Positions 13,249 through 64,000 of a stretch of 64,000 bases of DNA are shown here, one piece after another. Numbering within the stretch: the stretch's first letter is position 1; each line of letters opens with the position of its first letter. Below the pieces are notes generated by a model, which saw only the letters and a list, made by a program, of their open reading frames with translations, did not search any database and was not told the DNA's origin. The DNA is taken from IMG/VR virus record IMGVR_UViG_3300042868_014220. One strand, written 5' to 3'. Source of the DNA: a virus. Taxonomy: Duplodnaviria; Heunggongvirae; Uroviricota; Caudoviricetes. A program made the translations under genes and the position numbers.

Positions 13249-13250
13249 GA

Positions 13251-26710: not shown

Positions 26711-26751
26711 AGTTATAAATATTTTAGTATTTGGAAAAAAACTATTTATGT

Positions 26752-28527: not shown

Positions 28528-28602
28528 AGTTTTTTATTTATAAATATCCATAAAAAACCATTTTTATTTGACACACGAAAAAATAAGATTTATCTTTATC
28601 CT

Positions 28603-28860: not shown

Positions 28861-28876
28861 TGCATATCTTTGACCC

Positions 28877-30695: not shown

Positions 30696-30713
30696 AACAC
30701 TTATCTTTGTAGT

Positions 30714-34707: not shown

Positions 34708-35334
34708 ATGAATAAAATACAAGTAACACAACCAACATTTCTAATCAATTTAGATAATCCAACAGAAACTAGTTATGTACCTATGGAAGGTAATTGGAAA
34801 ACAATCACATCTCAAACATACCTAAATGGGTTTCCTGAAATAAAGGATGATGAGATTCTTTATGTCTATAAAAATAATAGAGGTTATATCTATAAAAATA
34901 ATATAGGTTATATTGCAATAAGTACAAATAACGAAAAATATAATCAGATTATTGATGATGTTTATAAATCTTATATAAAATCATTTTTTGAAGGACAATT
35001 AAAAGAAAATTATATATCAAGTGGTTATGATTTTGACGATTACTATACAGCTATAATGGATGTTCAAAATTTTTTAGGATTGCCTGGACCAATATCTCAA
35101 AAAGAATTCATCAACAAAATCAAAACAGATGGGGATTTTTCTAAGGAGTGGGGACTAAAGATTGAGGAAAGAGAGTTGAGTTTGGAAGAGAGAACAAAAT
35201 ATAAAAAGAAAAGAGACGGTATCGTTCGTACTTTTGCATCGTATACTCACCAAATGTTAGACGGTTCAAATATCCCAACCAAACTAATCACAATAACATA
35301 TAAAAACGAAACAATAGAAAGTTATGAAAATTAA
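34708..35334 (+). CDS. Truncated ThyA-derived paralog (no catalytic residues)
   Basis: KEFINKIKTDGDFSKEWG...RELSLEER...NIPTKLITITYKNETIESYEN aligns to insertion segments of thyA 36420-37559. Confidence 0.55.
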   Translation: MNKIQVTQPTFLINLDNPTETSYVPMEGNWKTITSQTYLNGFPEIKDDEILYVYKNNRGYIYKNNIGYIAISTNNEKYNQIIDDVYKSYIKSFFEGQLKENYISSGYDFDDYYTAIMDVQNFLGLPGPISQKEFINKIKTDGDFSKEWGLKIEERELSLEERTKYKKKRDGIVRTFASYTHQMLDGSNIPTKLITITYKNETIESYEN

Positions 35335-35536
35335 TAGACCAAAAGATGGTGACTATAGATATAAAACTAAGTTTTTATGGTTCCCTAAAAGATTTGATGG
35401 CGGGTGGTATTGGTTAGAAATTGTAACCATTAGACAAGTATATTTTTATTATGGACTAATCCCAGGATGGTATAATGTGTGTTTGTCAAACCCAGAATCA
35501 GGTCTCCCAATAAGTATTGACCCCATTAAAAAATAG
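35324..35536 (+). CDS. Small hypothetical protein
   Basis: ORF starting in ATAGAAAGTTATGAA context. Confidence 0.4.
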   Translation: MKINRPKDGDYRYKTKFLWFPKRFDGGWYWLEIVTIRQVYFYYGLIPGWYNVCLSNPESGLPISIDPIKK

Positions 35537-35542: not shown

Positions 35543-35872
35543 ATGAATAAAGAACAACAAGAATTGGTGGGTGATGTTTATAAGAACTATGAAAAATGGT
35601 GGAAATCTTACTCTCCAGGTGGTGCTCCAATACCACTATCAAAAGAAAAATTCATCAACAAATGTAAAAACGATACAGAGTTCTCTGGAAGGTGGGGATT
35701 AAAGATTGAAGAACGAGAATTAGATATGATGGAAAGATGGAAGATAGCCGACCTAACACCTAATATGGAAGAATTTGATTTTGCTAATTATATGTGCGAC
35801 AAACACAATATCCCAACCAAACTAATCACAATAACATACAACAACAAAACAATAGAAAGTTATGAAAATTAA
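35543..35872 (+). CDS. Truncated ThyA-derived paralog 2
   Basis: DVYKNYEKWW...EKFINKCKNDTEFSGRWGLKIEERELD...NIPTKLITITYNNKTIESYEN. Confidence 0.55.
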   Translation: MNKEQQELVGDVYKNYEKWWKSYSPGGAPIPLSKEKFINKCKNDTEFSGRWGLKIEERELDMMERWKIADLTPNMEEFDFANYMCDKHNIPTKLITITYNNKTIESYEN

Positions 35873-36059
35873 AATAGATGGAGGTGATTTACTAAGACAT
35901 ATGATGTTTTGGGGTGAAAAGACAGATGATGACTGTATTAAAATGGCAACTAATGATGAAGGTGAATTAAATGCTGAACAAGCTCTTATTAATATGTTGG
36001 AGAGAGATAATGCAGTAGAATTCAATAAGGAAGTTATTGAAGGATTAATGAATCTTTAA
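35862..36059 (+). CDS. Small hypothetical protein
   Basis: ORF. Confidence 0.4.
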   Translation: MKIKIDGGDLLRHMMFWGEKTDDDCIKMATNDEGELNAEQALINMLERDNAVEFNKEVIEGLMNL

Positions 36060-39119: not shown

Positions 39120-39708
39120 CCTTTTCCAATTCAATTTCCATATCTTTAGAGTCCATATATTTCATAACTCCTTGAATCATTTTGTTTTTGGATTCATCTG
39201 CCATTTCTAAAATCTCTTGGAATGTATCATTATCTTCTTCATCTTCACCATAATATCTTTCAATCCATTCTTTACCTGAATATAAAAATGGTGCTGATTC
39301 GAACATATTAACAGGGCTAGCTTCCCTTAATTTCATTAAAAATTTTCTTAAAAATCTCCAATCAAAATTTTCAAATATTTCAGGATTGTCACTAAAGAAA
39401 TTATATTCTGTAGATAACGTATTTGTCTTAGCCTCTTCAATAGGTTTTGGTTCCTCTTTAATCCATCTATCAGTTGCACTTAATAACCCCAACGTACTTC
39501 CGTTATCCCAATCAACAGTAATTATTTCACTATCAACCTCAAATGGGTCTCTAGTTGTACGAGATACGGTTCCAGTAGTGCCCATTGGGACTGATGTTTC
39601 TCCATCCATATGAAGACACATAACCCTATCACCTTTTGTTAATTTTGGATTTAACTCTTTTCTTGGTTTACTCATAACAATAAATATCTTTAGTATATTT
39701 ATTATCAT
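39058..39708 (-). CDS. Hypothetical protein
   Basis: ORF. Confidence 0.5.
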   Translation of the reverse strand: MIINILKIFIVMSKPRKELNPKLTKGDRVMCLHMDGETSVPMGTTGTVSRTTRDPFEVDSEIITVDWDNGSTLGLLSATDRWIKEEPKPIEEAKTNTLSTEYNFFSDNPEIFENFDWRFLRKFLMKLREASPVNMFESAPFLYSGKEWIERYYGEDEEDNDTFQEILEMADESKNKMIQGVMKYMDSKDMEIELEKVNRLMRKFSVDILQLYMSFP

Positions 39709-40326
39709 ATGGATTTTTTAATTAACGAATCTCAACTAAGAATTATCTTACAAGAACAAGACCAGTCTAAGATGACTGATTATATGAAAGAATTATATTC
39801 TTATACAAGTAATCTTGTTGTTAAGGCTAAAAAAAGTTTTGGACTTAATCTAAAGTTTCTTTTGACTTGGGGAACATCTGTTGGTGGTTTGGTTATGCCG
39901 TTGGACGCATATATTCGTACAGGTAGATTTGATTTAACTGAAGAACAGTCGTCTTTAATATTGTTTGGTGTTGCTTGTGCTTATTTCTATGAGAATAGTA
40001 AAGCATTTAAAACAATCTTAGTTAAAATAAAAGAGGAGGGATTAGAGGAAACTTTCAAAGAAGTTTTAATTAAATCTAAAAACCTAAAAGACTCTTTCTT
40101 AAAATTCTTATCGTCAATAAATTCGACATTAGGTTCATCTTCAGATTTATTAGCTTATTCATTTTTAATTCCTATTATTGGTGATATTTTATCTGCAAGT
40201 ACTGATGGTGATTTACAAACAACCGCAATGACAATTGCCAAGAGATTGGTTGCTTCAGGTGTTGTAGTTGTTGGACAAGTTGTTTTAACACAGTTAATTA
40301 AAAAGATTATTAAGAAGTTTTCTTAA
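39709..40326 (+). CDS. Membrane protein with N-terminal INESQL motif
   Basis: MDFLINESQLRIIL; several TM segments. Confidence 0.5.
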   Translation: MDFLINESQLRIILQEQDQSKMTDYMKELYSYTSNLVVKAKKSFGLNLKFLLTWGTSVGGLVMPLDAYIRTGRFDLTEEQSSLILFGVACAYFYENSKAFKTILVKIKEEGLEETFKEVLIKSKNLKDSFLKFLSSINSTLGSSSDLLAYSFLIPIIGDILSASTDGDLQTTAMTIAKRLVASGVVVVGQVVLTQLIKKIIKKFS

Positions 40327-42057: not shown

Positions 42058-42494
42058 CTATTATAAATACTTGAAAATGGAATTGATAACCCTACACCAT
42101 ACCTAAAACCTTCAGAATAATTTAAACCGAGACAAAAATCCACACCACTCTTATTTTTTGTAACCATTCTTATTGGGAAAATCTTTAACCAAATATCGGG
42201 AACCGTCTCAATACCATTGATATTCTTCTTGACAAATCCTCCACCCATTATACTATATGTGTTTTTTTTATTAACATAGGTAAAACCCATCCGATTCACA
42301 ATAACACTTGGGGTTATGTAAATAAACGGTTGTAGACTACTTGTCGTATAGGTTCCTCCGACATACCATCCGAGTTGTTTGAAGTTATATGAAGTAACTA
42401 AAGCCTGTTGGTTGGGGACATACATAATATCTGTTTGTTGTGCATTGACAATAACATATAAAAATAGTAAGATTGATGTTATTAAACTTTTCAT
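42054..42494 (-). CDS. Secreted outer-membrane beta-barrel-like protein
   Basis: Signal peptide MKSLITSILLFLYVIVNAQQ; alternating beta pattern, C-terminal aromatic. Confidence 0.5.
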   Translation of the reverse strand: MKSLITSILLFLYVIVNAQQTDIMYVPNQQALVTSYNFKQLGWYVGGTYTTSSLQPFIYITPSVIVNRMGFTYVNKKNTYSIMGGGFVKKNINGIETVPDIWLKIFPIRMVTKNKSGVDFCLGLNYSEGFRYGVGLSIPFSSIYNR

Positions 42495-42553
42495 AAAACA
42501 AAGATATAAATATTATTTGATATAATGAAAAAATAAATTTATAATTACAAAAT

Positions 42554-43576
42554 ATGTCACGAATAGAAGAATTAAAAAAACAAAATCCATCATTCTCGGT
42601 CAATTATATTGACATAATTAACAATATATTGCCCAAAAGTATCTATACTGAAATGGCGGTTAATTTACTTAAGAATGACAACTTAAATCGTAAAAATAAT
42701 CAGGAGAGAAAAGACCTTATTAGTGAGTTAGTCAATCAATATAAGGTAGATGAGAAAATACTTGAACCTATGTCATTTATGGAAGTTCATAACACTTTTA
42801 GAACTGTAGCGGATTATTTTGGATATGATAACTTTAAAACAATACAGAAATTTGCAGAATTAAATGATAGAAAATTAATTGAAAATAATGATTTAACATC
42901 ATATAAAAACTTTAAAGAACTTGAACTTCAGATTTCATTATCAGGTTTAAAGGTAATTGATAAAGAATTGGAAAAACAAATACTAAGATTATATGAAACT
43001 GATGAATGGTTGGTAATGAAACCTTTATCTTATTTATCATCATTAAAGTACGGTGCAAGTACTAAATGGTGTACCGCGGCAGATAACAATCCTGAGTATT
43101 TTTACAAATATGTTAAAAGAGGTATTTTAATATATGTGATTAATAAAAAAACAGGTGATAGGGTTGCAGCTTTTAAAACTACTGATACAGGTGAATATGA
43201 TAAAGAAACGTCATTTTGGAATATTACAGACCAAAGGATTGATTCTATGGAAAGTGGTCTATCTTATGAGGTTATGAACGTAATTAGAAATGAATTTACA
43301 AACAATCTAATATCTAATTGGAATATTTTAGATGACAAAGAAAGAAATAGACAGATTTTATGGTTAGAGAATGATTATTATAAATCTAAAAGAGGGAGAC
43401 TTACTATTTTACAAGAGGAAGATGAAATAGCGCCACCAAGGGATGTTAGATTTGAAATATTAACACCTATGGATATTAGTCATGATGTAGTTGAAGACCT
43501 TTACGAAACTTTTGGTGGTGGCTCTGGTGGAATGGTGGTGTTTAACGAGGATAGCGAACCTCAGACATCACAATAA
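42554..43576 (+). CDS. KYGSGTKWCT-family protein
   Basis: MSRIEELKKQNPSFSVNYIDIIN; LVMKPLSYLSSLKYGASTKWCTAADNNPEYF. Confidence 0.6.
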   Translation: MSRIEELKKQNPSFSVNYIDIINNILPKSIYTEMAVNLLKNDNLNRKNNQERKDLISELVNQYKVDEKILEPMSFMEVHNTFRTVADYFGYDNFKTIQKFAELNDRKLIENNDLTSYKNFKELELQISLSGLKVIDKELEKQILRLYETDEWLVMKPLSYLSSLKYGASTKWCTAADNNPEYFYKYVKRGILIYVINKKTGDRVAAFKTTDTGEYDKETSFWNITDQRIDSMESGLSYEVMNVIRNEFTNNLISNWNILDDKERNRQILWLENDYYKSKRGRLTILQEEDEIAPPRDVRFEILTPMDISHDVVEDLYETFGGGSGGMVVFNEDSEPQTSQ

Positions 43577-43808: not shown

Positions 43809-43848
43809 CTTTCCATATTAAAACATATTTATAATAAAACACATAATT

Positions 43849-44649
43849 ATGTTATTGAAAATTGGGTCTAAGGGTAAAGACGTAAAAAAAATCCAAGAAA
43901 AATTAAAACTTAAAACTGATGGAAAATTTGGTGATGATACTTTTGAAGCTGTTAAAAAATGGCAATCTGAAAATGGGTTAGAACCTGATGGTCTCGTTGG
44001 AGAGATTGATTGGTACATAATGTTTCGTAATGAGGTTTCTTCCGTAAAAGGTTTAAATCTTAATAAATTAAAAGGTAATATTCCTGATATTGTCTTGTCT
44101 CAAATTCCTGAAACTGCCAAAAAATTTAAGATTACAACCAACTTAAGATTAGCTCATTTCTTATCTCAATGTGCTCACGAATCTGGCGGTTTTAAAGCGG
44201 TTAGTGAAAATCTTAATTATTCGGTAGAAGGACTTAAAGATATTTTTGGAAAATACTTTCCTGGTAATTTATCTGAATCATACGCTCGTCAACCACAAAA
44301 AATTGCAAATAAAGTTTATGGTGATAGAATGGGTAATGGACCAGAATCCTCAGGAGATGGATTTAAATTTAGAGGTAGAGGTTATATCCAATTAACAGGA
44401 AAATCAAATTATACCAAATTTGGAAAATTCATCGGTGAGGATACAATTGGTAATCCTGATTTGGTTGCCAGCAAATATCCATTAGCTTCTGCAGCATTTT
44501 TCTTTGATTCAAACAATATTTGGGAAACTTGTGATAAAGGTTCTGATGTATCAACAATCACTTCAGTTACCAGAAGAATTAATGGAGGAACCAACGGATT
44601 GGAAGATAGAATAAAATATTTCAACAAATACTACAAATTATTATCGTAA
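43849..44649 (+). CDS. Endolysin: peptidoglycan-binding domain + GH19 (chitinase-like) catalytic domain
   Basis: GSKGKDVKKIQEKL..DGKFGDDTFEAVKKWQ; HFLSQCAHESGGF...GRGYIQLTGKSNY. Confidence 0.75.
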   Translation: MLLKIGSKGKDVKKIQEKLKLKTDGKFGDDTFEAVKKWQSENGLEPDGLVGEIDWYIMFRNEVSSVKGLNLNKLKGNIPDIVLSQIPETAKKFKITTNLRLAHFLSQCAHESGGFKAVSENLNYSVEGLKDIFGKYFPGNLSESYARQPQKIANKVYGDRMGNGPESSGDGFKFRGRGYIQLTGKSNYTKFGKFIGEDTIGNPDLVASKYPLASAAFFFDSNNIWETCDKGSDVSTITSVTRRINGGTNGLEDRIKYFNKYYKLLS

Positions 44650-45989: not shown

Positions 45990-46011
45990 TAAAAAGTATT
46001 ATATTTGCATT

Positions 46012-46686
46012 ATGAAAATTGTATTCATTTCAGACACGCACGGTAAACATAAGATTTTAACATCTAAAGCGTATAATAACATCTTGGGTGAAGGTTTTTG
46101 TTTGGTTCATGCGGGAGATTGTACCAATGTTGGTAAAACTCACGAAATTAAGGAATTCTTGGATTGGTTTTCAGATACACCATTCACACATAAAATATTC
46201 ATTGCAGGTAATCACGATTTTGGATTTGAAAAGAACCACGATATTGACCAAGAATATAAAGACAAAGGTGTTCATTATCTTTTTGATAGTTCAGTTGAAA
46301 TTGAGGGAATTAAGTTCTACGGAAGTCCGTGGCAACCTGAATTTTATGATTGGGCATTCAACCTACCAAGAGGTGAAAAACTAGCTGAAAAGTGGGCTAA
46401 AATCCCTGAGGATAGTGATATCGTAATTACACACGGACCAGCATACGGAATGGTTGATGCCACAATCCAAGGTACGAATGTTGGATGTCACGATTTATTC
46501 CACCGACTTATGAAAGTTCAACCAAAAATTCACGTTTGTGGACACATACATTGGTCTTACGGTCAAAAATCATTTAATGGTATTGAGTTCTTAAATGCGT
46601 CTACCTTAAATGAAAGATATGAATATGAGAACAAACCAATTGTAATTGAATTTAATCCTGAGACAAAAGAAATTGACTATTTATAA
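46012..46686 (+). CDS. Calcineurin-like metallophosphoesterase
   Basis: FISDTHG, GDCTNVG, GNHD motifs; TATATTTG immediately upstream. Confidence 0.7.
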   Translation: MKIVFISDTHGKHKILTSKAYNNILGEGFCLVHAGDCTNVGKTHEIKEFLDWFSDTPFTHKIFIAGNHDFGFEKNHDIDQEYKDKGVHYLFDSSVEIEGIKFYGSPWQPEFYDWAFNLPRGEKLAEKWAKIPEDSDIVITHGPAYGMVDATIQGTNVGCHDLFHRLMKVQPKIHVCGHIHWSYGQKSFNGIEFLNASTLNERYEYENKPIVIEFNPETKEIDYL

Positions 46687-46969: not shown

Positions 46970-47014
46970 TTTAAGGGTGATAAGAAATTATCACCTTTTT
47001 TTATATTTATTATT

Positions 47015-47875: not shown

Positions 47876-47892
47876 GGTGCAAATATACGGAA

Positions 47893-49080: not shown

Positions 49081-49112
49081 ATCATGATAAATACCACAGT
49101 AAAATAAAAATG

Positions 49113-49400: not shown

Positions 49401-49464
49401 AGTAATTTCTCTTTACTTATAAATATCTTGTAATAAAAAAAGGAAACATTTGTTTCCTTTATAA

Positions 49465-49707: not shown

Positions 49708-49843
49708 TCTATTTGATATTTATAATTAAATCAGCCTCCCCACAATGATGGGGACTTTTAGGACCGTTATCGTTATGGTAACATTAAAAGGGGAAGTTCG
49801 CTACTATCCCCTTTTTTCATTTAAATAATAGTAAAAATTATGG

Positions 49844-50137
49844 TTATAACAAATAACCATCAATATATTTTTTGATAGTTCTTCTTAAAACTTCAGTCCC
49901 CAAATGTCGCCACTCATCCTCAATTTCACCATATATTTTTCCAACCAAATACTTTTTATTATGTTCGATGGTGTGTGACCTATCATCAACATACATTTGT
50001 TTTATTGGTTTTTTCATCCAGTCAAATTTGAATTCACTAACAGGAAAATTTCTCTTCAGGTGGTTCAATAATTCATCTGAAGTTTTTCCATCATATTTAG
50101 ATAGTATTTGTTTTTTTTCTTCTTCTGTGATATTCAT
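49844..50137 (-). CDS. Hypothetical protein (N-terminal ITEEEKKQIL motif)
   Basis: ORF. Confidence 0.5.
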   Translation of the reverse strand: MNITEEEKKQILSKYDGKTSDELLNHLKRNFPVSEFKFDWMKKPIKQMYVDDRSHTIEHNKKYLVGKIYGEIEDEWRHLGTEVLRRTIKKYIDGYLL

Positions 50138-50187
50138 AATAATAATAAATATAGTTGTATTTATTTAAAAAAATAGCAACAAATATA

Positions 50188-51278: not shown

Positions 51279-51356
51279 TTACCTTTTAATTTAACATATA
51301 AATACTAAAAAATACTAAAAGATGAAATATTAAAATAAATTAATTTAGTGTTAGTT

Positions 51357-52044: not shown

Positions 52045-52545
52045 TTAGTGTCCTTTAATCATGTTAATTCCGTGTTTCAAGAACTCTTTTGCTCTTGGTG
52101 AAATGTGTTTCATCGAATACACTTTTTCAATATCTTTAACAAGTTCCTCCCCGTGTTCATTCTCTTTATAAAGTTCAATAATTTTATCCATAGCAGAACC
52201 ACACTCTTTTTTGGTTTCATCAAAGTAGTTGTAAGGCTTAAATGATTTCAAGTGATTCATAATCTCACTTGCCAAGTGTTCACCACCATCAGAAACTTTA
52301 TTATGCATTCTAAGGGTTTTCAATAACTCTAATTTATCTACCAAACCATTAATACCTCTAGGTCTAATTTGTACACCTTCAATATAATCTTCGGCATCAT
52401 CATCACCAACAATTTCCTCTAAAGATTTTACGTTTCCACCATGGCAGAATTTACGGTCATCTTCTTTTGTTTCGGATTCTTCTATAAGATAAAGTTTTTT
52501 AATTGATTCTTTATCGCTTTCAGTAAGTTGAAATCTTTTTCCCAT
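52045..52545 (-). CDS. Hypothetical protein (N-terminal QLTESDKESI motif)
   Basis: ORF. Confidence 0.5.
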   Translation of the reverse strand: MGKRFQLTESDKESIKKLYLIEESETKEDDRKFCHGGNVKSLEEIVGDDDAEDYIEGVQIRPRGINGLVDKLELLKTLRMHNKVSDGGEHLASEIMNHLKSFKPYNYFDETKKECGSAMDKIIELYKENEHGEELVKDIEKVYSMKHISPRAKEFLKHGINMIKGH

Positions 52546-52587
52546 ACATATAAATATACAGAGTCTAAGTTAGTTAGGGGTTTCTTG

Positions 52588-52785: not shown

Positions 52786-52833
52786 AATTTCTTTTTCTAA
52801 AAATAATATAACTTTTAGGATTATAAATAGTCT

Positions 52834-53279: not shown

Positions 53280-53651
53280 TTAAGCATCGAGAGTTTTAAC
53301 TGGTAATTCAAAATTTTCCGTAAACCATTTTTTAAATGGTTCATACCACATTTCATTAAAATATCCATTCAATATCTTTTCATATTCATATTCAACAGAT
53401 ACCATTGGACAAGAAACTTTTATTTGATTATCGGGATAAAAATATTCACAATCATACCATCTAAAACACGTATCTTCATCACCATAATCTCCAATATAAA
53501 ATTCAACTCTGGTTTCATCGTCATAGTTTTCACCAGTTTCATCATCATATTCTGTAGGATTTGTGGAGTTTATGTTATCAACGGGAAATAAAACATTAAT
53601 ATACTCAATAATGGCGGTTTCCAATTTAGATTCAGTGATGATATACTTCAT
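53280..53651 (-). CDS. Hypothetical protein (N-terminal IITESKL motif)
   Basis: ORF. Confidence 0.5.
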   Translation of the reverse strand: MKYIITESKLETAIIEYINVLFPVDNINSTNPTEYDDETGENYDDETRVEFYIGDYGDEDTCFRWYDCEYFYPDNQIKVSCPMVSVEYEYEKILNGYFNEMWYEPFKKWFTENFELPVKTLDA

Positions 53652-53662: not shown

Positions 53663-54097
53663 TTAGGAATTTTGGTTAATTTCCCTGTCAATATCCCTCT
53701 TTTTCATCGTTTCCCTTTTATCATACAGGTTTTTACCCTTTGCAAGAGCTATTTCGACCTTAATTAGACCCTTTTCGTTGAGAAATACTCTATATGGGAC
53801 AATGGTTAACCCTTTAATCAATTCCTTCTGTAAACGAGACAATTCTCGTCTTTTTAGTAAAATTTTACGGTCTTGATTGGATTTATGGGTATAATCTGAC
53901 AATATTTCACTAATATTAGCGTTTTTTAGGTATAATTCACCATCAATAAAGGTACAAAACGCTTCAGATATTGACATTTTACCATTACGAATTGATTTCA
54001 CTTCGGAACCCATCAATACAATACCACCAACTTCAGTACGGATGAATTGATATTCAAACTTGGCTTTCTTATTTATTATATTAACTTGACTATTCAT
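53663..54097 (-). CDS. smpB: SsrA-binding protein SmpB
   Basis: KKAKFEY...GIVLMGSEVKSIRNGKMSISEAF...TIVPYRVFLNEKGLIKVEIALAKGKNLYDKRETMKKRD matches SmpB conserved blocks. Confidence 0.75.
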   Translation of the reverse strand: MNSQVNIINKKAKFEYQFIRTEVGGIVLMGSEVKSIRNGKMSISEAFCTFIDGELYLKNANISEILSDYTHKSNQDRKILLKRRELSRLQKELIKGLTIVPYRVFLNEKGLIKVEIALAKGKNLYDKRETMKKRDIDREINQNS

Positions 54098-54149
54098 AGT
54101 GCAAATATAATAAAAAAACTCTCAAGGTGTTGAGAGTTTTAAATATTTT

Positions 54150-54710
54150 TTAAGCAATATTTGTATCAATTGGTTTTGGTTTTGGAGATGCACCTGCTAA
54201 ATATCCGTCGGCTACTTTAGCCAACAATGGACCAGTTCCCCATTTTTTAAGTCCTTGCATTCTTGATAGTTTGTAAAGACCGACATCATTCTTTAATCCA
54301 TTAACAATGTCCGTATAATATCCTAATTTCAAAGTTTCGCATGTTGCTTTAATCCCATCTTCCATTGACCGATAGTTTTTAACTCCTTTACTATTAAAGT
54401 TTGTTGTTCCTGACATTTTTTTAGTTGTATTAAATGGGTTGAATTTTGCGGTTGCTCCTTCAGCTTGTCTCCAAGCATACATAAATGACATATTACCTTT
54501 AGTTGGTTGAGCACCAAGACATTGTAATACCTTCTTATAAAACTCATCATCAGATGTTGTTTTAGATTGGACTTTATCATCCAATTTTTTTGAGTCCAAA
54601 TCTATTTTTTTTGAATTCAAGTCTGATGAGTTACCACCCATTGTCATTTTTAAAATGTTACTAAGCAATTTTGCTAAATCTTGTTCATTAAGTCGTATAA
54701 CTCTTTTCAT
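54150..54710 (-). CDS. Hypothetical protein (N-terminal IRLNEQDL motif)
   Basis: ORF. Confidence 0.5.
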   Translation of the reverse strand: MKRVIRLNEQDLAKLLSNILKMTMGGNSSDLNSKKIDLDSKKLDDKVQSKTTSDDEFYKKVLQCLGAQPTKGNMSFMYAWRQAEGATAKFNPFNTTKKMSGTTNFNSKGVKNYRSMEDGIKATCETLKLGYYTDIVNGLKNDVGLYKLSRMQGLKKWGTGPLLAKVADGYLAGASPKPKPIDTNIA

Positions 54711-54719: not shown

Positions 54720-55061
54720 TTATTTTCCTAATTTACCTAACATACAACTAGGTAATGCAGTATTTTTTGAATCGGTAACACCAACCATGTACCACATGGT
54801 ACCTGATTGTTTTAATGTTCCTTTTGAATTTACGGAACACATTTTCATCCCTGCAAAGTTTTGCGGAGATTGTGTCGGTTTATTAATTGGAGCTGACACT
54901 TGTTCATCAATTGAATATTGATGAACTAATGGTTTTAAATCACCAAGTTTTGAATTTGTTAATTTATTGAAATTTTCGGTAATAACTTTTATTCCACCTG
55001 TATGTTGTTCACGAATACTATTTTTTTCCTCTTCAGTTAAATTATTTAATATGTGTTTCAT
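54720..55061 (-). CDS. Hypothetical protein (N-terminal LTEEEKNSI motif)
   Basis: ORF. Confidence 0.5.
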   Translation of the reverse strand: MKHILNNLTEEEKNSIREQHTGGIKVITENFNKLTNSKLGDLKPLVHQYSIDEQVSAPINKPTQSPQNFAGMKMCSVNSKGTLKQSGTMWYMVGVTDSKNTALPSCMLGKLGK

Positions 55062-55091
55062 AAAATTTGTTTATTATAAATATAAGATAAA

Positions 55092-56465
55092 TTAAATTTC
55101 GCCAAGTTCTGACTGTAATGTTTCACTATCAGGTATATTCTTGGATTTTAATATTTCCGCCATTTTTTTTGCAGTATATCTATCCATCTTACCTACTGAT
55201 GACGTTAATTTATTTTCTTCTTGAAATTTAGTTAATTGTGATTGCGTTTCAGGACCGAACTTACCGTCCACACCGAATTTAGGTAAAGTATATCCTAACT
55301 TAATTAATGCATTTTGGAATTTAGTAACGTCATTATTTTCCGTATATACTCCTGATTCTCCTTCATATCCTGCAACCTCTTCTGCCATAAAATCTAACGA
55401 TTCTTTTGATGTTTCATCAGGATTTAAATCTTCCATGTTATCCAAAGCATTATAATCAATTGACCCATCATCCAACACAACATCAGATAATCTTTTTATA
55501 AATAAAGGTACCAAAACACTATATCCTCTTCTCATCCAAGGTGCTCCAATTGCGTTTTTAACAAATGTCTCAACAGGAACCGCAGTTTGCCAAGTTCTAT
55601 TACCACCTTTAAATAAAATTTTTACACCAGTATCTGTAACTTCTTCAATTGTTCCAGTCATTGCCTTTCCTGAAGGTCCTATATACCTATATGGTTTACC
55701 CTTAACAAATCCCATTCTTCTTAAGAAGAATGAACCTTTTTGTATTTTAGGTATTTTACTTAAAAATGAAGTTAATGCTTTTTTACCTCCCGCTCTCATA
55801 CCAGTCATTATTGCAGCCTTTGGAGTTATTTTTGAAAGTAATGCAGTGACTCTTGTAGAAAATTTTGAAACGTATCCTGATATTTTAGTCCCAAATTTGC
55901 CTAAAATCTTTTTGGCTAATGGAGATTTTAACGCTTTCCCAATTAAATTTGGAATTGCACCTAATATAAATTTTAAACTTTTACCGATAATACCCAAACC
56001 TTTAACCACAACTTTTGAAGTTAAACCTACACCTGTTTTTACCGCTCTTTTAAGTGGTATAGAAATTGCTTGTAATGGTCCAGGTAATATAACAAAAGCA
56101 AAGGTAATTGCTGCCATTAAATATAAAGAATCTTTTTCCTCATCTCCTTTAAATTGTGCCTCAATGATATAACTAACAGCGTTTAAAACATCAACAACCG
56201 CACCACTTCCAGGTATTACAAAATCTAATCCTGCAGATAAAACGTCAGCTCCAGCGTGTAAAATATCACTAAGTGTCCATCCTTCATTTAATAATGTTTC
56301 TTCACCTGTTTCAGTATAATATGCTTTACCTTCATAAACAACATATTTACCATCAGACGTGAATTTACATTCCATTAATTTTTGTAATGGTTTTTTATCT
56401 TCGACCAATAGTCCATACATTTTTAATATATCGTTTCTATCTGATTCAGTAATTATAAATCTCAT
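55092..56465 (-). CDS. Membrane protein with N-terminal IITESD motif and C-terminal peptidoglycan-binding domain
   Basis: C-terminus DVTKFQNALIKLGY...VDGKFGPETQSQLTKFQ; central hydrophobic region. Confidence 0.55.
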   Translation of the reverse strand: MRFIITESDRNDILKMYGLLVEDKKPLQKLMECKFTSDGKYVVYEGKAYYTETGEETLLNEGWTLSDILHAGADVLSAGLDFVIPGSGAVVDVLNAVSYIIEAQFKGDEEKDSLYLMAAITFAFVILPGPLQAISIPLKRAVKTGVGLTSKVVVKGLGIIGKSLKFILGAIPNLIGKALKSPLAKKILGKFGTKISGYVSKFSTRVTALLSKITPKAAIMTGMRAGGKKALTSFLSKIPKIQKGSFFLRRMGFVKGKPYRYIGPSGKAMTGTIEEVTDTGVKILFKGGNRTWQTAVPVETFVKNAIGAPWMRRGYSVLVPLFIKRLSDVVLDDGSIDYNALDNMEDLNPDETSKESLDFMAEEVAGYEGESGVYTENNDVTKFQNALIKLGYTLPKFGVDGKFGPETQSQLTKFQEENKLTSSVGKMDRYTAKKMAEILKSKNIPDSETLQSELGEI

Positions 56466-56486
56466 GTACTTATAAATATCATAAAC

Positions 56487-56522
56487 AATAAAAAACCCAT
56501 CCTTGTGAGACGAGGTTAATCA
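56487..56522. terminator. Conserved intergenic terminator module copy 1
   Basis: aaaaaacccatccttgtgagacgaggttaatcattt. Confidence 0.45.
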
Positions 56523-56923
56523 TTTACGTCTTTAACGTTAGCATCAATATTTCCGTCAACAGATGTTATTGAGAAATTAAGTCCAACATATACCAAAAGT
56601 TTAGACATTGTTCCTCTCATATTACTAAAATAATTAAAACCATAAGCATTATCCGCCATTTCAGTGGTAATCTCATCTTCACCATTCCATCCATTATCAA
56701 ACAATGGTTTAGAATCCATTATAACATTAACATCAAAATCTAAAAATCTTTCACCGATACGATAAGGACCGATTTTACGTGTGGTATAAACTTCTTTAAC
56801 ATAATTTGTTTTGAATTCCAAAACAAACGGATAGGTTGAGGGCATCATAGTATCCCAAAGCTTAGATAATACTTTTGTGTGGTCAGCAACCACATCTTCT
56901 TCCTTAAAATCTTTCCGTGACAT
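56516..56923 (-). CDS. Hypothetical protein
   Basis: ORF. Confidence 0.5.
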   Translation of the reverse strand: MSRKDFKEEDVVADHTKVLSKLWDTMMPSTYPFVLEFKTNYVKEVYTTRKIGPYRIGERFLDFDVNVIMDSKPLFDNGWNGEDEITTEMADNAYGFNYFSNMRGTMSKLLVYVGLNFSITSVDGNIDANVKDVND

Positions 56924-56949
56924 AATCTATAAATACAATAATTTTAATC

Positions 56950-57864
56950 TTACACAATTCGTGTGTTGTTATTTTGTTTTGTATCTTGGTAAGCCAACTG
57001 ATTTATTTTGTTTATCATAATATTAATATCTTGATAACCACTCAAAGCCCAACAACATAAAACCCAATAAATTTGACCATCATATTTTTCTTTTTTAATA
57101 TATGGTATTAACATTTCTTTAGTTATGTTTTCTCCTGGCTTTAAATTAAAAAGTTTTCTAATTGCCATAATATTAGACATTTTTTCAGTTTCTTTACAAG
57201 CATAATTTGGATTGTTTTCTTCTTGACTTTTAGCGGTTCTTAACCAAGTAAATAAAGTGAATTCATCTATTCCATATTTTTTTGATACTTTTCTAATATT
57301 AACCCAAAATTTACTTAAAGCTTCATAACTAACTTCAAAATCTTTTGGTGTCATTTTTTTTGTCCCATCTTTAACAAATACATCACCAATTTTAACAGAT
57401 GGATTTAATGGTTTAATTTTGTAAAGAGTATGTTGAATTTCGTGAACTAATGTCGTTAATGGTTGTTCATCATTTTTAGAACAATTAACGAAAAGTTTAG
57501 TTGGTTGCGTATCAATAACATATGCGAATGTATTTTTAGTTGAATCACTAGATGCAGTTACATTATCATAGTAAACCAAATTAATTGCATTTATTGCGTT
57601 AATATATTTTTTAAATAAATCATCTACAGTAATTCCATCAATTTTATTATCAACACCAACACCCCAATTTTTCTTAAATTTAGACTTAGTAATAGGACTT
57701 GATAACCATTGAATCCAATAATCTTTTGCTTGTTTAAGATAACTTATCCATTTTGATTTACAGAATGGACCAACTCTTGCAACATTATTTGAGCTCTTAC
57801 CTGAGATTGTAGTTTGTTCTGTTAAAATTTTTGAAAGTTGAGATTCTGTTATGATAAATTCCAT
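56950..57864 (-). CDS. Hypothetical protein with IITESQL N-terminus and HEIQH motif
   Basis: MEFIITESQLSKIL; LVHEIQHTLY. Confidence 0.5.
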   Translation of the reverse strand: MEFIITESQLSKILTEQTTISGKSSNNVARVGPFCKSKWISYLKQAKDYWIQWLSSPITKSKFKKNWGVGVDNKIDGITVDDLFKKYINAINAINLVYYDNVTASSDSTKNTFAYVIDTQPTKLFVNCSKNDEQPLTTLVHEIQHTLYKIKPLNPSVKIGDVFVKDGTKKMTPKDFEVSYEALSKFWVNIRKVSKKYGIDEFTLFTWLRTAKSQEENNPNYACKETEKMSNIMAIRKLFNLKPGENITKEMLIPYIKKEKYDGQIYWVLCCWALSGYQDINIMINKINQLAYQDTKQNNNTRIV

Positions 57865-57885
57865 ATCATTATAAATACAAAGATA

Positions 57886-57927
57886 AACAAAAAACCCCAT
57901 CCTTAAGACGGGGTTAGTGATTTAAGA
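57886..57927. terminator. Conserved intergenic terminator module copy 2
   Basis: aaaaaaccccatccttaagacggggttagtgattt. Confidence 0.5.
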
Positions 57928-58206
57928 TTTTATCATCGCGTCGATAAACAATATTGTATTTTCAACTTTACTCCAATTTTCTTCTCGGATTGCGGACTTT
58001 AACATTCGTCTAACATATTCAATTTTATTTACAACTTCACCTGATAAATCTCCTGACGAATCATCAAGATGAACGTATTCATCATCCTTTAAATCATCAT
58101 ATAAATTTTTAATATCTCTACCACCGTATACTCTGTCATTTTCATTGATTACTTTTTTAACAATTCTTGTTAAATCATCTTCCGTTAATTTTATAACTTT
58201 TTTCAT
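57922..58206 (-). CDS. Small protein with KLTEDDL N-terminus
   Basis: MKKVIKLTEDDLTRIVKKVINEND. Confidence 0.5.
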   Translation of the reverse strand: MKKVIKLTEDDLTRIVKKVINENDRVYGGRDIKNLYDDLKDDEYVHLDDSSGDLSGEVVNKIEYVRRMLKSAIREENWSKVENTILFIDAMIKS

Positions 58207-58212
58207 ATTTTT

Positions 58213-59052
58213 TTATTTTTTTAAAATTAAGAATTCATAATAATATTTACCTGATTCACCTTTCCATTCGTCTTCTCGTTTCAAGTTGGGGTAAAGGTTT
58301 TCTATGTTTTTTTCAATTCTATCATCTAATTCTTTTCTATTAATGTCGGACCATACTAGTGTCATACCTGCTATTTTGGTTTCACCTGTTGAGTATGATA
58401 CTTTAAACACATTATTGGTGTATGAGAAAACCACACTACTCTCATCTATTGATGTACCACCACTTGTTTTAGATTTTACCTTGTTTCTAAATTCGTCAAG
58501 GGTGGTTCCTTCTATAGTTTCAGGTACGTTTGGTTGTGATTGTGAATTTTTTGAAACTATAAAAAATGCCTGTATATATTCCTCATTTGTTCCTTTTACT
58601 TTATAAATGGATGGTCCAATTACCCTTATTTGACTTGGAGTTACTTTGAAAAGTGCCTGTAATCTATCAATTAAACCATTGGTATTATCTTTAAAACGGT
58701 TTTTATAATCAGCACCAATAGCACCTCTAGATGTAAATCCAATATCAGGATTGTTAGTGTCTGAAACTAAAGTAACAGTTCCGTCGGTAATAATTTTTTT
58801 ACCACTAACATATGATGAAACTTTGATATCGGTAATTCTATAACTTCCACTCTTTAATTTTTTACTTACTCTATCTTCCAAATCATCGGATAAATTCTTA
58901 GAACTTAATATACCGTGTACTAAATCCCAATTAGTTTCCCCTGGATATGGTTGTTCTCCTCTGATTGAAACAGTCTCGCTTGACTGTTCATTTAACCCGT
59001 ATAAACTACGAATTGATTTTTTTTCTTCTTCCGTTAGAATAAATTTTCCCAT
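58213..59052 (-). CDS. Hypothetical protein (N-terminal ILTEEEKKSI motif)
   Basis: ORF. Confidence 0.5.
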   Translation of the reverse strand: MGKFILTEEEKKSIRSLYGLNEQSSETVSIRGEQPYPGETNWDLVHGILSSKNLSDDLEDRVSKKLKSGSYRITDIKVSSYVSGKKIITDGTVTLVSDTNNPDIGFTSRGAIGADYKNRFKDNTNGLIDRLQALFKVTPSQIRVIGPSIYKVKGTNEEYIQAFFIVSKNSQSQPNVPETIEGTTLDEFRNKVKSKTSGGTSIDESSVVFSYTNNVFKVSYSTGETKIAGMTLVWSDINRKELDDRIEKNIENLYPNLKREDEWKGESGKYYYEFLILKK

Positions 59053-59074
59053 ATCATTATAAATACCTCATAAA

Positions 59075-59113
59075 ACAAAAAACCCCATCCTTTTGAGACG
59101 GGGTTAGTGATTA
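59075..59113. terminator. Conserved intergenic terminator module copy 3
   Basis: aaaaaccccatccttttgagacggggttagtgatt. Confidence 0.5.
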
Positions 59114-59539
59114 AATTACTTCAATGGAGTTAATCTTATCTCCTTGTTGGATTTGGTCAATCACATCAAGTCCTTCAACAACTTTACCGAAACAGGTATG
59201 GTTTCCGTCCAAGTGTTGTGTTCCTTGTCTGTTATGACAGATGAAGAACTGAGAACCACCAGTGTTTCTTCCTGCGTGAGCCATAGATAGAATACCTTTG
59301 TCGTGGAATTGTTTTGGTGCGGTTACTTCACATTCGATGGTATAACCTGGTCCACCATTACCAAGTCCATTTGGGCATCCACCCTGAACTACGAAATTTG
59401 GAATAACTCTGTGGAAATTTAATCCATCATAGAATTTTTTTTCAATTAAACTTTTGAAATTGTTTGTTGCGATTGGCGTCTCGTCATACAACTCGGCAAC
59501 CATATCACCTTTGCTTGTAGAAATTTTTACTTTACTCAT
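59111..59539 (-). CDS. Cyclophilin-type peptidyl-prolyl cis-trans isomerase
   Basis: HRVIPNFVVQGGCPNGLGNGGPGY...SMAHAGRNTGGSQFFI. Confidence 0.8.
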   Translation of the reverse strand: MSKVKISTSKGDMVAELYDETPIATNNFKSLIEKKFYDGLNFHRVIPNFVVQGGCPNGLGNGGPGYTIECEVTAPKQFHDKGILSMAHAGRNTGGSQFFICHNRQGTQHLDGNHTCFGKVVEGLDVIDQIQQGDKINSIEVI

Positions 59540-59566
59540 AAATATATTTTCAACAAGTATAAGAAA

Positions 59567-60286: not shown

Positions 60287-60553
60287 TTAATATCTATTTT
60301 TTAAAAATACATATACTACTTCAGGTATTTTTGTACATACATGCATTTCTCCTTTGTCATTTTTACAATCAATATATGGTAATTCTTTGATTATTTTTTT
60401 TAGTTCTCTAGGCCCGTTTTTCAACCTATTAACAATATAATCTCTGTTATATAATTTTTGGGAGTCGTATATCTCTTCATTGATTATTCTTTCAACCAAT
60501 GAAATCATTTGTGATTCTGTTAATCTTAATACTTTTGATTTACGTTTTTCCAT
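60287..60553 (-). CDS. Small protein with LTESQM N-terminus
   Basis: MEKRKSKVLRLTESQMISLVERIINEE. Confidence 0.5.
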   Translation of the reverse strand: MEKRKSKVLRLTESQMISLVERIINEEIYDSQKLYNRDYIVNRLKNGPRELKKIIKELPYIDCKNDKGEMHVCTKIPEVVYVFLKNRY

Positions 60554-60584
60554 ATTTAAAGTCCTTTAGATTATAAATACTTTG

Positions 60585-62386: not shown

Positions 62387-64000
62387 CTAGTCTTTTATAA
62401 ATTTGGAATAGAATCTTAATCCACTTTTCTTAACCAATTGGATGATATAAAATCCTTTTTGTAATTCTTCGGTATTAATTTTTATTAATTCCCCGTTAAA
62501 TTGACTCAAATCTATTTCTTGGATAGTTTTTCCTTGAATATCGGTAATTAAGATTGTTTCATAAGTTTGTAATTGTCCTTGAATTAGTAAATTCAAATTT
62601 TTTTGATTTGGATTAGGGTACAAAGCCTTTATACCAGTTTGGGTATTGCTGTGCTCTAATTGTACAATATTACTAAAGGTAATTAATCCACTATTTTCTG
62701 TAATTCTGAGTTGGTAATAGGTTGAATTATAAGCCAGATGTTGTGTGTTTATAAATTCATAGTGTGTCAATGAATTGGTGTTATTTAATGCCGTGATATC
62801 ACCTATCGGATTAAAATTGAAACCATCATAAGAAATCATAATCTCATATTTATCGATGTCACTTTCATCGGCAACCTGCCACTCAATATAATGATGATTC
62901 ATTACTTGATAGGCTTCAAAAGAAATTAATTTGACGGGTAAAGGAATACAAAACGGAGTTAAAATAAAGGTGTCTCTAATGGTTTGGCAAATGTTATTTT
63001 CTATTTGCCACACAAGACTGTAAGTTCTTAGTGAATCCCCTGTGAAGGTGGCATTAGGATTGTGAATATCACTGATAGTGCCTCCCGAACCGCTTATAAT
63101 AATCCATGTGCCCTTAGAATTTCCGTTTGTTGATTGTGCATTTAATTGACAAGACCCACAGTGAGTATCAGAATCTGATGCAGATGAAATGTGTCGGTCA
63201 ATAATGGACGAAACAATGAATAATCCATTGGTTGTACCCGCACCTCCTCTCGTAGCTCCATTCGCTATAAATTCTGTTAATGCTGCAGAAGTAGTAGTAC
63301 CATTTACACCACCATTTGCTATTCTTGTTGGGCTCCCGTTTGAGATAGAAATAGTTCCACCGCCACCTCCACCTCCTGGACCTTCTGCTTCGTTACTAGT
63401 TATTAATTGATTACCTCCATTACCGCCATTTGTAAATAAGTTTAAAGTGTTTGCTATTGTGCCATCAACGCTTAATAAGACTGTACCACCACCGCCACCA
63501 CCACCAGGAGCATCATTGTGTCCCGCCGTTGTATTGGGTGAGTTTCCTCCACTTGAGGTAATAACGCCACTTCCTGATAAATTACCATAGCAAAGAATCA
63601 AAACTATTCCACCCCCGTGGCCACCTCTTGTTGCTGCCGAATTATTACCATCACCTGCACCTCCTCCGCCTCCAAAAAATGTTCTAGTATTGCTAAAAAC
63701 CAAAGGCCTTCCACCATAGCCACCCGAATTTCTTCTCCAATCTCCACCCCAAAGACTATTACCAGGTGCGGTTATTATTGCATCTCTATTAGCCCCAGAA
63801 TAAGTATATCCCCCTCTACCTCCTCCAGATGAAGTATTTGTTGAAAATGTACCTCCTTCCAAATTCCATGCGGTTGTCCAATTAATTGGTCCGTTGTCCG
63901 GATTTCCTAGTCCGTTCCAAGCAGATACAACCCCACCATTTGCACCACCCCCACCACCAGCATTGTGAGAATTACCCCCTCCCCCTCCATTTGCAGGAGC
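62387..64000 (-). CDS. Partial CDS (N-terminus outside window): glycine-rich repeat protein with Bacteroidota T9SS C-terminal sorting domain
   Basis: Reading frame open to window edge; GGGGG/NGGNGG repeats; C-terminus ...LYPNPNQKNLNLLIQ...ITDIQGKTIQEIDL...LQKGFYIIQLVKKSGLRFYSKFIKD typical of the Por-secretion CTD. Confidence 0.6.
   Translation of the reverse strand, partial: APANGGGGGNSHNAGGGGGANGGVVSAWNGLGNPDNGPINWTTAWNLEGGTFSTNTSSGGGRGGYTYSGANRDAIITAPGNSLWGGDWRRNSGGYGGRPLVFSNTRTFFGGGGGAGDGNNSAATRGGHGGGIVLILCYGNLSGSGVITSSGGNSPNTTAGHNDAPGGGGGGGTVLLSVDGTIANTLNLFTNGGNGGNQLITSNEAEGPGGGGGGGTISISNGSPTRIANGGVNGTTTSAALTEFIANGATRGGAGTTNGLFIVSSIIDRHISSASDSDTHCGSCQLNAQSTNGNSKGTWIIISGSGGTISDIHNPNATFTGDSLRTYSLVWQIENNICQTIRDTFILTPFCIPLPVKLISFEAYQVMNHHYIEWQVADESDIDKYEIMISYDGFNFNPIGDITALNNTNSLTHYEFINTQHLAYNSTYYQLRITENSGLITFSNIVQLEHSNTQTGIKALYPNPNQKNLNLLIQGQLQTYETILITDIQGKTIQEIDLSQFNGELIKINTEELQKGFYIIQLVKKSGLRFYSKFIKD

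Follow-up and report, generated by a model that had tools for sequence, protein, structure and literature searches.

What is the short A/T-only word that stands in front of so many start codons in one stretch of phage DNA, and by what machinery is it read? The stretch, called the window below, is the whole of the 64,000 nucleotides (nt) analysed here from a virus of the Caudoviricetes (IMG/VR record IMGVR_UViG_3300042868_014220); it has about 31% G+C and carries about 108 open reading frames (ORFs), 23 tRNA genes and a gene for transfer-messenger RNA (tmRNA). An initial annotation, made from the letters of this DNA, had noticed a conserved motif shortly upstream of nine genes and had suggested a phage-specific and perhaps late promoter, distinct from the host-like TAnnTTTG elements of other genes and giving some nearly leaderless transcripts. 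The core of that motif is TATTTATA, which we call the class B box, the TAnnTTTG boxes being class A. By analogy with known promoters, class B is probably a stand-alone promoter of the -10-region type, which would direct a second regulon of middle or late genes with the help of a phage specificity factor.

Enrichment, polarity and conservation of the class B box

In the form (A/G)TATTTATA(A), the core is the most enriched word 5′ of start codons in the window, and it ranks first in an unbiased 8-mer enrichment test (21 of its 33 copies in 3% of the positions, p = 3e-24). Copies occur on both strands, and 25 of the 33 are intergenic, non-coding sequence making up 11.6% of the window. Their orientation follows the genes: 23 lie at most 40 nt 5′ of a start codon on the same strand, as against 2 in the reverse orientation. 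The annotation's own test was whether the motif is any more frequent upstream of genes than within them, and the answer is a 49-fold difference in density, 4.44 per kb upstream against 0.09 per kb on the sense strand of coding sequence. Longer forms are also in excess, with 11 matches to RTATTTATAAK where 1.2 are expected (11 being reached in none of 100 shuffles) and 19 to TATTTATAA where 5.5 are expected.

Could such a word be a by-product of AT-rich composition or of duplications, or else a replication, packaging or methylation site? The upstream regions are 77% AT, and three copies (59065, 57877 and 56478) sit in duplicated cassettes. A compositional by-product is contradicted, however, because 1000 dinucleotide-preserving shuffles of the same 48-nt upstream windows give 1.6 ± 1.3 copies (maximum 6) where 23 are observed; other words with the same base composition show much weaker enrichment, the orientation of the box goes with that of the gene, and the box is kept in relatives while its flanks diverge. 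We regard this explanation as extremely improbable.

The polarity extends to the relatives, where non-redundant related loci totalling 734 kb hold 139 gene-oriented upstream copies and 50 reversed ones. Upstream of the gene for a protein of 459 amino acids (aa), the box or its variant TATTTATT is kept in about 70 IMG/VR loci, with proteins down to 33-40% identity and diverged flanks. In a MAFFT alignment of 24 of these upstream regions, TATTTAT is the sole invariant non-coding block; apart from it, conservation is confined to the -33 TTTGAC of a divergent class A promoter. Membership of a class is stable among orthologues, class B being found for the acidic protein (37/41), the 79-aa protein (29/35), the 13251 family (10/10) and the endolysin (4/5), and class A for ClpP (22/30) and the phosphoesterase (24/25); mixed cases are rare.

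The nine sites first cited are real, but they are a part of a larger set: the window holds about 26 exact and 8-9 variant sites, the variants being TATTTAT followed by T, C or G, and about 25-30% of genes carry a class B box. Eight of the nine have the exact box (minus-strand genes 55061, 56465, 57864, 59052, 60553 and 49400, plus-strand genes 2015 and 43849), whereas at 42554 the motif is present as a one-mismatch variant, AATTTATAAT. The exact boxes are as follows.

2004-2011, plus strand: 3 nt before ATG 2015, the start proposed by the initial annotation; a second copy at 1985-1992
6208-6215, minus strand: 34 nt before ATG 6173 (54-aa ORF); class A box TATCTTTG just upstream
8861-8868, minus strand: 3 nt before ATG 8857; 195-aa protein within the tRNA region
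11268-11275, plus strand: 4 nt before ATG 11280
11881-11888, plus strand: 5 nt before ATG 11894 (glycosyltransferase-like)
13983-13990, minus strand: 3 nt before ATG 13979; class B in 10/10 orthologues
15959-15966, minus strand: 3 nt before ATG 15955 (HNH endonuclease)
16386-16393, minus strand: 8 nt before the 29-aa ORF 16288-16377; tRNA-Pro lies beyond a terminator and a class A box
26455-26462, minus strand: 15 nt before ATG 26439, head gene of a two-paralogue operon (359 aa, 344 aa)
26714-26721, minus strand: 3 nt before ATG 26710 (79 aa); class B in 29/35 orthologues
28539-28546, minus strand: 11 nt before ATG 28527 (459-aa acidic CxxC protein); the box kept in about 70 related loci, back to back with the class A promoter of gene 28603
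42062-42069, minus strand: 4 nt before ATG 42057; inside the 3′ end of the upstream gene
42505-42512, minus strand: 10 nt before ATG 42494; overlaps class A TATCTTTG at 42499-42506 (tandem A+B)
43826-43833, plus strand: 15 nt before ATG 43849 (endolysin)
46678-46685, plus strand: 11 nt before ATG 46697 (phrog_12660, a structural protein of the virion); shares bases with the stop codon of the gene before it
49418-49425, minus strand: 17 nt before ATG 49400; directly after terminator 49439-49460
51297-51304, minus strand: 18 nt before ATG 51278
52549-52556, minus strand: 3 nt before ATG 52545 (product carries the LTE tag at its N-terminus, described below)
52822-52829, minus strand: 36 nt before ATG 52785
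55075-55082, minus strand: 13 nt before ATG 55061 (LTE-tag protein)
56471-56478, minus strand: 5 nt before ATG 56465 (457 aa, LTE tag and peptidoglycan-binding domain); repeated cassette
56928-56935, minus strand: box TATTTATAG, 4 nt before ATG 56923
57870-57877, minus strand: 5 nt before ATG 57864; adjoins class A TATCTTTG at 57878-57885; repeated cassette
59058-59065, minus strand: 5 nt before ATG 59052; repeated cassette
60572-60579, minus strand: 18 nt before ATG 60553 (LTE-tag protein)

Class A promoters and the architecture of class B sites

The absence of Shine-Dalgarno (SD) signals, the TAnnTTTG boxes, a type IX sorting domain and the lack of any sigma-70 excess point to a phage of Bacteroidetes. 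The second family of upstream words in the window (TATCTTTG, ATATTTGC) is the -7 box of the Bacteroidetes sigma-A promoter, TTTG-N19-TAnnTTTG. In a pooled set made of the window and 42 non-redundant related loci, with 180 class A and 148 class B sites, the -33 TTTG of class A appears about 19-20 nt upstream of the box (T/T/T-G/G-T at -23 to -20), and the box stands exactly 4 nt before the ATG in 77 of the 180 sites and mostly 13-24 nt before it in the remainder. Class A is a genuine promoter, because together with its -33 TTTG it stands before tRNA and tmRNA genes, usually right behind a terminator. Its genes comprise tRNAs, tmRNA, SmpB, ClpP, phosphoesterases, a PNK-like ATPase and an RnlA-ThyA block (RNA ligase, thymidylate synthase), functions that we infer to be typically early or middle. 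The following class A boxes serve as comparators.

875-882, plus strand: TACCTTTG, upstream of the tmRNA gene 987-1377
16202-16209, minus strand: TATCTTTG, upstream of tRNA-Pro, following a terminator
54102-54109, minus strand: TATATTTG, exactly 4 nt before the smpB ATG (53663-54097); follows terminator 54115-54140
28865-28872, plus strand: TATCTTTG, exactly 4 nt before ATG 28877 (phosphoesterase); class A in 24/25 orthologues

Further examples of class A boxes at exactly 4 nt from the ATG lie at 8186-8193, 21073-21080, 21923-21930, 30702-30709, 46000-46007 and 47880-47887, and likewise in related loci L001-L076. The stable-RNA genes examined, the tmRNA gene (987-1377, plus strand) and the tRNA region (7560-16170, minus strand), have class A promoters. 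Inside the class A-driven enzyme block, near-identical stretches of 70 nt (35254-35323 and 35792-35861, plus strand; …atcccaaccaaactaatcacaataacata.aa…caatagaaagttATGAAA) precede genes 35324-35536 and 35862-36059 and represent a local duplication.

In Flavobacterium psychrophilum, the TAnnTTTG box occupies -12 to -5 of mapped start sites (PMC9723704), and mRNAs of the form TAnnTTTG-N4-ATG would therefore start at the A of the ATG and be leaderless. Leaderless mRNAs make up only 5.5% in that bacterium (PMC9723704); the leaderless class A layout, 77 of 180 sites here, is far above the figure reported for this Flavobacterium host.

Class B boxes are placed in a similar register. Among the 148 pooled sites the distance to the ATG is 3-5 nt in 44, with a broad second mode at 10-18 nt and a depletion at 6-9 nt; overall it ranges from 2 to 37 nt, a few sites lying at about 35 nt. 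This bimodal spacing is the pattern expected if the genes are either leaderless or have a leader long enough for a ribosome. A purine (never T in the window) precedes the box, and an A and then A-rich sequence follow it. No conserved column was found between -50 and -2 that could represent a -33 or -35 partner, either in 24 window sites or in the 148 pooled ones, and positions 6 and 8 are A in all copies, against T6 and G8 in the sigma-A box. The two classes stand in tandem at 42499-42512, 57870-57885 and 6208-6227. In the leadered cases a separate A-rich signal of host type lies between the class B box and the ATG; the non-SD translation signal of Bacteroidetes is A-rich, and is TAAAAA in Flavobacterium (PMC6028130).

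Intrinsic terminators, which are enriched in the window (21 against 6.3 expected), lie 10-20 nt upstream of several class B boxes (59105, 57915, 56514, 49460 and 46998), in the same arrangement as at the class A boxes at 61747 and 54140. Because these terminators end so close to the boxes, no other promoter fits between them. The terminators that precede minus-strand class B boxes in this way are the following.

59081-59105, minus strand: intrinsic terminator hairpin and T-run, directly upstream of box 59058-59065; cassette copy
57893-57915, minus strand: terminator of the second cassette copy
56496-56514, minus strand: terminator of the third, more diverged cassette copy
49439-49460, minus strand: terminator directly upstream of box 49418-49425

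The cassette, of about 60 nt, occurs in three copies and consists of a terminator hairpin, the box, the ATG and a paralogous N-terminus. Its hairpin, AACCCCGTCT..GGATGGGGTT with a T-run, has been duplicated in all three together with the box and the 5′ end of the gene. From their sequence, the copies look like spreading modules of terminator, promoter and N-terminal tag.

Orientation with the gene, a place at the heads of transcription units after terminators, the sigma-A register and a footprint in dozens of relatives argue together, on sequence grounds, for the promoter that the initial annotation had suspected. Its separation from TAnnTTTG also holds up, in that the two boxes have separate, stable gene sets and only TAnnTTTG goes with a -33 TTTG and with tRNA and tmRNA genes. 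In the mechanism that we propose, the class B 8-mer would take the place of the sigma-A -7 box, at about -12 to -5, and the first transcribed base would lie some 4 ± 1 nt past its end. For roughly half of the sites that base would be the A of the ATG, giving an mRNA that is leaderless or has a 1-2-nt leader, and the remaining sites would give a short A-rich leader of about 6-14 nt. The nearly leaderless transcripts suggested earlier would follow from the 3-5-nt spacing, given that the sigma-A box has been mapped to -12 to -5 (PMC9723704). Without T6, G8 and a -33 element, class B would be a poor substrate for the unmodified host holoenzyme; because these contacts are lacking, a phage-made factor would be needed, whether a gp55-like protein, another protein of the sigma family or a modifier of sigma. 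Class B genes would be expressed after the early class A genes, as middle or late genes, because the phage-made factor must come first.

The same register could also be explained if class B were a strong variant of the host sigma-A -7 box, read by the unmodified polymerase with neither a temporal class nor a phage factor. The two boxes have T1, A2, T5 and T7 in common, they keep the same register to the ATG, and a few sites have both in tandem. A variant of this kind would nevertheless have replaced T6 and G8 by A in every copy and dispensed with the -33 TTTG; the gene sets are disjoint and evolutionarily stable, stable-RNA genes have class A only, and the sigma-A motif variants SM1-3 of F. 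psychrophilum all keep the TAnnTTTG consensus (PMC9723704). We consider a plain sigma-A variant quite unlikely.

A second alternative places the box in the mRNA, as a non-SD ribosome-recruitment signal (perhaps for ribosomes altered by bS21) or as the site of a translational regulator. In its favour, some half of the copies are found 3-5 nt ahead of the ATG, close to the place of an SD sequence, relatives of this type of phage encode bS21 (PMC9723584), and Bacteroidetes use non-SD signals (PMC6028130). Against this, the spacing is bimodal and spread over 2 to 37 nt, unlike that of an element that positions ribosomes, and the carriers are about 25-30% of genes, at the heads of transcription units and often 10-20 nt after a terminator. 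Class A, a known promoter, has the same geometry, and the A-rich signal of host type is a separate one, downstream of the box. We also infer that the motif has no complementarity to the anti-SD sequence, and no bS21 gene was found in the window or its flanks. Such a role is unlikely in our judgement, and a promoter remains the preferred reading.

Two further readings and one further line of evidence were tried and dropped. If the 3′ half, TATAAT, were a sigma-70 -10 box, sites spaced 3-5 nt from the ATG would have their transcription start within the ORF; nor does the window have an excess of sigma-70-type promoters (87 against 99 expected). A T4 late promoter on the opposite strand is excluded by polarity (23 gene-oriented copies against 2). 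A pyrimidine at -1 was too weak as evidence for the start site, at 90% in class A, 76% in class B and 67% in the background.

The variant and orphan sites of the window are listed below.

1938-1945, minus strand: variant box TATTTATC, 3 nt before ATG 1934 (HNH endonuclease)
4854-4861, plus strand: variant box TATTTATT, 4 nt before ATG 4866 (M23 peptidase domain protein)
19716-19723, minus strand: variant box TATTTATT, 16 nt before ATG 19699 (LTE-tag protein); class B in 12/14 orthologues
39696-39703, plus strand: variant box TATTTATT, 5 nt before ATG 39709 (LTE-like tag); B or BA in 22/23 orthologues
42536-42545, plus strand: one-mismatch variant AATTTATAAT, before ATG 42554
47004-47011, plus strand: variant box TATTTATT, 3 nt before ATG 47015; directly after terminator 46973-46998
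49086-49093, minus strand: variant box TATTTATC, 5 nt before ATG 49080
50144-50151, minus strand: variant box TATTTATT, 6 nt before ATG 50137
59537-59544, minus strand: variant TATTTATG, sharing bases with the cyclophilin ATG (gene 59111-59539); the weakest of the candidates
49717-49725, plus strand: orphan class B box with no downstream ORF; terminator-like hairpin within about 35 nt

At the orphan TATTTATAA (49717-49765, plus strand), a hairpin, CCCCACAATGATGGGG, followed by ACTTTT starts 11 nt further on, and the site could specify a tiny RNA of about 35 nt or be a chance occurrence. Read from the minus strand, these bases spell TATAAATA, at 9 nt from ATG 49707.

Genes behind the box and the search for a putative factor

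Genes with a class B box encode the endolysin, a virion structural protein, peptidoglycan-binding proteins, homing endonucleases and the LTE-tag proteins. Given the endolysin, virion and peptidoglycan-binding genes, and the missing sigma-A requirements, the earlier suggestion of a late promoter is plausible, but it falls short of proof.

The LTE tag is an N-terminal sequence of about 20 aa shared by otherwise unrelated proteins, M-x-(K/R)-x-(I/L)-x-L-T-E-(S/E/D)-(E/D/Q)-(L/K)-x-x-I, with codons that vary at synonymous positions; in a narrower form it is M-x-K-x-I-x-L-T-E-(S/E/D)-(E/D/Q)-L-x-x-I. Nine of the tagged genes of the window have class B, 2 are operon-internal and none has class A only (Fisher p = 9e-5); over the window and the related loci, the link between tag and class B has an odds ratio of 22. 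The tagged genes are these.

19106-19699, 27148-28527, 39709-40326, 52045-52545, 54150-54710, 54720-55061: LTE-tag genes
55092-56465, 56950-57864, 57922-58206, 58213-59052, 60287-60553: LTE-tag genes, continued
53280-53651, 49844-50137, 24323-25357: LTE-tag genes recognized by eye

The prohead protease of T4, of the Peptidase_S77 family, cleaves after (L/I)-x-E, and the short N-terminal capsid-targeting sequences of T4 end in such a cleavage site. The LTE tag resembles these sequences, and by this analogy the tagged proteins may be packaged or ejected; if this phage has the S77 protease of the bS21 phages discussed below, the tag would mark packaged head proteins, which are late products.

The 459-aa protein (27148-28527, minus strand) is very acidic and largely of low complexity, with repeated CxxC pairs and an LTE-type N-terminus, and its gene has the highest codon-usage score in the window. 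IMG/VR holds 76 related loci, on contigs of up to 326 kb with 30-35% G+C, and metagenomes hold more than 2,100 homologues of the protein, all unannotated and about 360-550 aa long. Its candidacy as a capsid protein was dropped, in view of its acidic, CxxC-rich and largely low-complexity sequence. Searches of Pfam, PHROGs and PDB sequences gave no match to the flagship class B proteins, and an AlphaFold model of the 359-aa protein (pLDDT 74) gave no significant fold match in the PDB. A motif of peptidoglycan-binding type (DGKFG...T) occurs in 25360-26439 and 24323-25357 (minus strand), 55092-56465 (minus strand) and 43849-44649 (plus strand); in the tandem paralogues of 359 and 344 aa it is C-terminal, and this pair is kept in most relatives.

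What could read the box? Genes for a sigma factor, a gp55-like protein or RNA polymerase, including beta/beta′-like subunits, were not found in the window, which is 64 kb of a genome of roughly 300 kb, or in the flanks retrieved. For gp55 and gp33 no PHROG or Pfam match was obtained among nearly all window proteins of at least 100 aa, which cover 64 of the roughly 300 kb, and phmmer searches with Escherichia coli sigma-70 regions 2-4 and with S21 gave no match in the ORFs of the window and the loci. A search of the viral contig collection against a sigma-70 alignment returned host-like rpoD fragments only.

An RNA polymerase brought in by the virion could read the box, class B then being an early promoter for a phage multisubunit enzyme of the PhiKZ/AR9 type. 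The form of the box suits such a promoter, which is about 10 nt long, AT-rich, highly conserved and near -10 (PMC7598289), and this is a jumbo genome, related contigs reaching 326 kb. Polymerase subunit genes are, however, not seen in the window or its flanks. Phages of the PhiKZ type are independent of the host polymerase, while this one has many host-type promoters, those of its tRNAs included; the endolysin and virion genes behind the box look late rather than early, and the head module of the family to which the phage probably belongs is T4-like (Gp23, Peptidase_S77), not of phiKZ type. We think a virion polymerase very unlikely.

Several points weigh against a promoter read with a phage factor, which we still prefer. 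Both the promoter activity of class B and its start site are argued from analogy. Its spacing of 3-5 nt is looser than that of class A, which is fixed at 4 nt, and the factor searches above came back empty. Class B never precedes tRNA or tmRNA genes, and its restriction to protein-coding genes therefore leaves room for the role in the mRNA judged unlikely above. The word late draws on a few annotated genes; for the majority of class B genes a function is not known, and homing endonucleases are among the products of the others. Gene starts are the output of a crude in-house gene caller, and the sites at 59065, 57877 and 56478 are not independent, because they are copies of one duplicated cassette.

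As for the phage itself, blastn with the part of the window from 54 to 61 kb and tblastn with the 459-aa and 359-aa proteins gave no match to cultured or deposited phages, and the window has no DNA match among deposited phages; SmpB is the sole protein matched, to Lak and other huge phages. The type IX secretion sorting domain (Por_Secre_tail), an export signal specific to Bacteroidetes, is at the C-terminus of a 491-aa protein (62387-63862, minus strand). Genes for translation comprise the tmRNA (987-1377, plus strand), SmpB (53663-54097, minus strand) and the 23 tRNAs. A family of unknown function, phrog_17056/28193, has four paralogues (3-746, minus strand; 1967-3514, 29564-30511 and 42554-43576, plus strand), two of which have the N-terminus MSRI(D/E)(K/E)LK(E/K)Q in common.

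Genome size, G+C content, tRNA load and RnlA...ThyA/SmpB synteny place the window, on circumstantial grounds and not by sequence identity, with the freshwater bS21 phages described by Chen et al. (PMC9723584). These have a T4-type head module of Gp23, Peptidase_S77 prohead protease and portal, their bS21 has been proposed to favour late phage mRNAs, and a single SigA-like gene appears in their supplement, for one genome, as no more than a lead (PMC9723584). That paper contains no promoter analysis (PMC9723584), and our literature searches returned no earlier description of the TATTTATA box and no promoter analysis of these phages. Other huge phages linked to Bacteroidetes have different words: in Prevotella phage Lak-B5 (L077, 92431-132868) the T4-late-like (A)TATAAAT(A) lies upstream of ORFs and sense TATTTATA is absent, and in the 735-kb phage LR756501 (L078, 179524-219949) the upstream word is TAATATATA, not TATTTATA. 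Such sequences suggest that each clade of huge phages may have its own upstream word, from two phages with crude gene calls and small numbers.

It is possible, though we put it forward as a tentative and rather doubtful proposal, that the whole amounts to an undescribed late-transcription system of freshwater Bacteroidetes jumbo phages, in which a factor, maybe a diverged gp55-like protein, would retarget the unusual RNA polymerase of Bacteroidetes to -33-independent TATTTATA promoters and would yield mostly leaderless or short-leader mRNAs from a regulon of LTE-tag genes whose products are probably packaged or ejected. If this were true, leaderless mRNAs would be the feature by which bS21 (in the relatives), tmRNA/SmpB and the 23 tRNAs favour late phage translation. 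Leaderless starts or very short A-rich leaders would also offer the published idea of a bS21 late-translation bias a testable feature of the mRNA. The factor to seek would be one that frees the RNA polymerase of Bacteroidetes from its -33 contact. The clade is abundant, uncultured and almost unannotated, and a two-class code of TAnnTTTG and TATTTATA would sort its hypothetical genes into temporal or functional regulons. The box would also fix true start codons (for example 2015 and 57864) and delimit transcription units without recourse to experiment, and in Flavobacteriia it could be put to use as a promoter part that depends on infection.

Class B beside known systems

The late promoter of T4 is TATAAATA; it spans about -13 to -6 and is read by gp55 together with gp33 and the gp45 clamp. 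Like class B, it is one 8-bp A/T-only element of the -10 region that lacks a partner of the -35 type, it stands before lysis and virion genes, and it often lies at the end of an upstream gene or right after a terminator; the probable family of the window has T4-type head genes as well (Gp23, Peptidase_S77, portal; PMC9723584). In the same orientation TATAAATA and TATTTATA are identical at 6 of 8 positions, and they are exact reverse complements. Class B nevertheless departs from the T4 late consensus, with TT and not AA at its centre in every copy, and TATAAATA is gene-oriented upstream in 2 of 33 cases; the lack of an upstream element is a point on which the two agree. The host here is one of the Bacteroidetes, a gp55 or gp33 homologue was not found in the sequence at hand, and about half of the class B sites lie so near the ATG that, by analogy with the host box, the mRNA would have to be leaderless.

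With the host sigma-A promoter, class B has in common the distance to the start codon, a probable position at -12 to -5, the initial TA and the T at positions 5 and 7, and the two occur in the same genome and sometimes in tandem. It differs in lacking G8, T6 and a -33 element, so that neither the -7 box TAnnTTTG nor the -33 TTTG is present, in having a separate and stable gene set, and in never preceding tRNA or tmRNA genes.

The early promoters of phiKZ/AR9-type jumbo phages, conserved AT-rich words of about 10 nt near -10 that are used by a virion RNA polymerase (PMC7598289), are likewise short, clade-specific and found from sequence alone. They drive early genes by means of phage multisubunit polymerases, whereas class B stands before late-looking genes in a genome with many host-type promoters and no polymerase gene seen; the enzyme and tRNA genes that look early carry class A.

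In leaderless-rich bacteria, group C of GeneMarkS-2, a promoter signal lies about 10 nt upstream of start codons (PMC6028130), and here too the likeness is to a box of the -10 type that keeps a short, fixed distance to the ATG in the first genes of operons, which implies leaderless mRNAs. Bacteroidetes, however, fall in group B, with an A-rich non-SD signal (PMC6028130), and F. psychrophilum has 5.5% leaderless mRNAs, while this phage uses the layout heavily and with two boxes. The non-SD signal keeps a consistent short distance to the start and is found at first and internal genes alike (PMC6028130). Class B is not this signal itself, having a T-rich centre, a bimodal spacing of 2-37 nt and a presence at about a quarter of the genes. 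Set beside these systems, it would be a regulatory motif of a familiar kind, a phage-specific promoter class independent of a -35 element, and no new principle.

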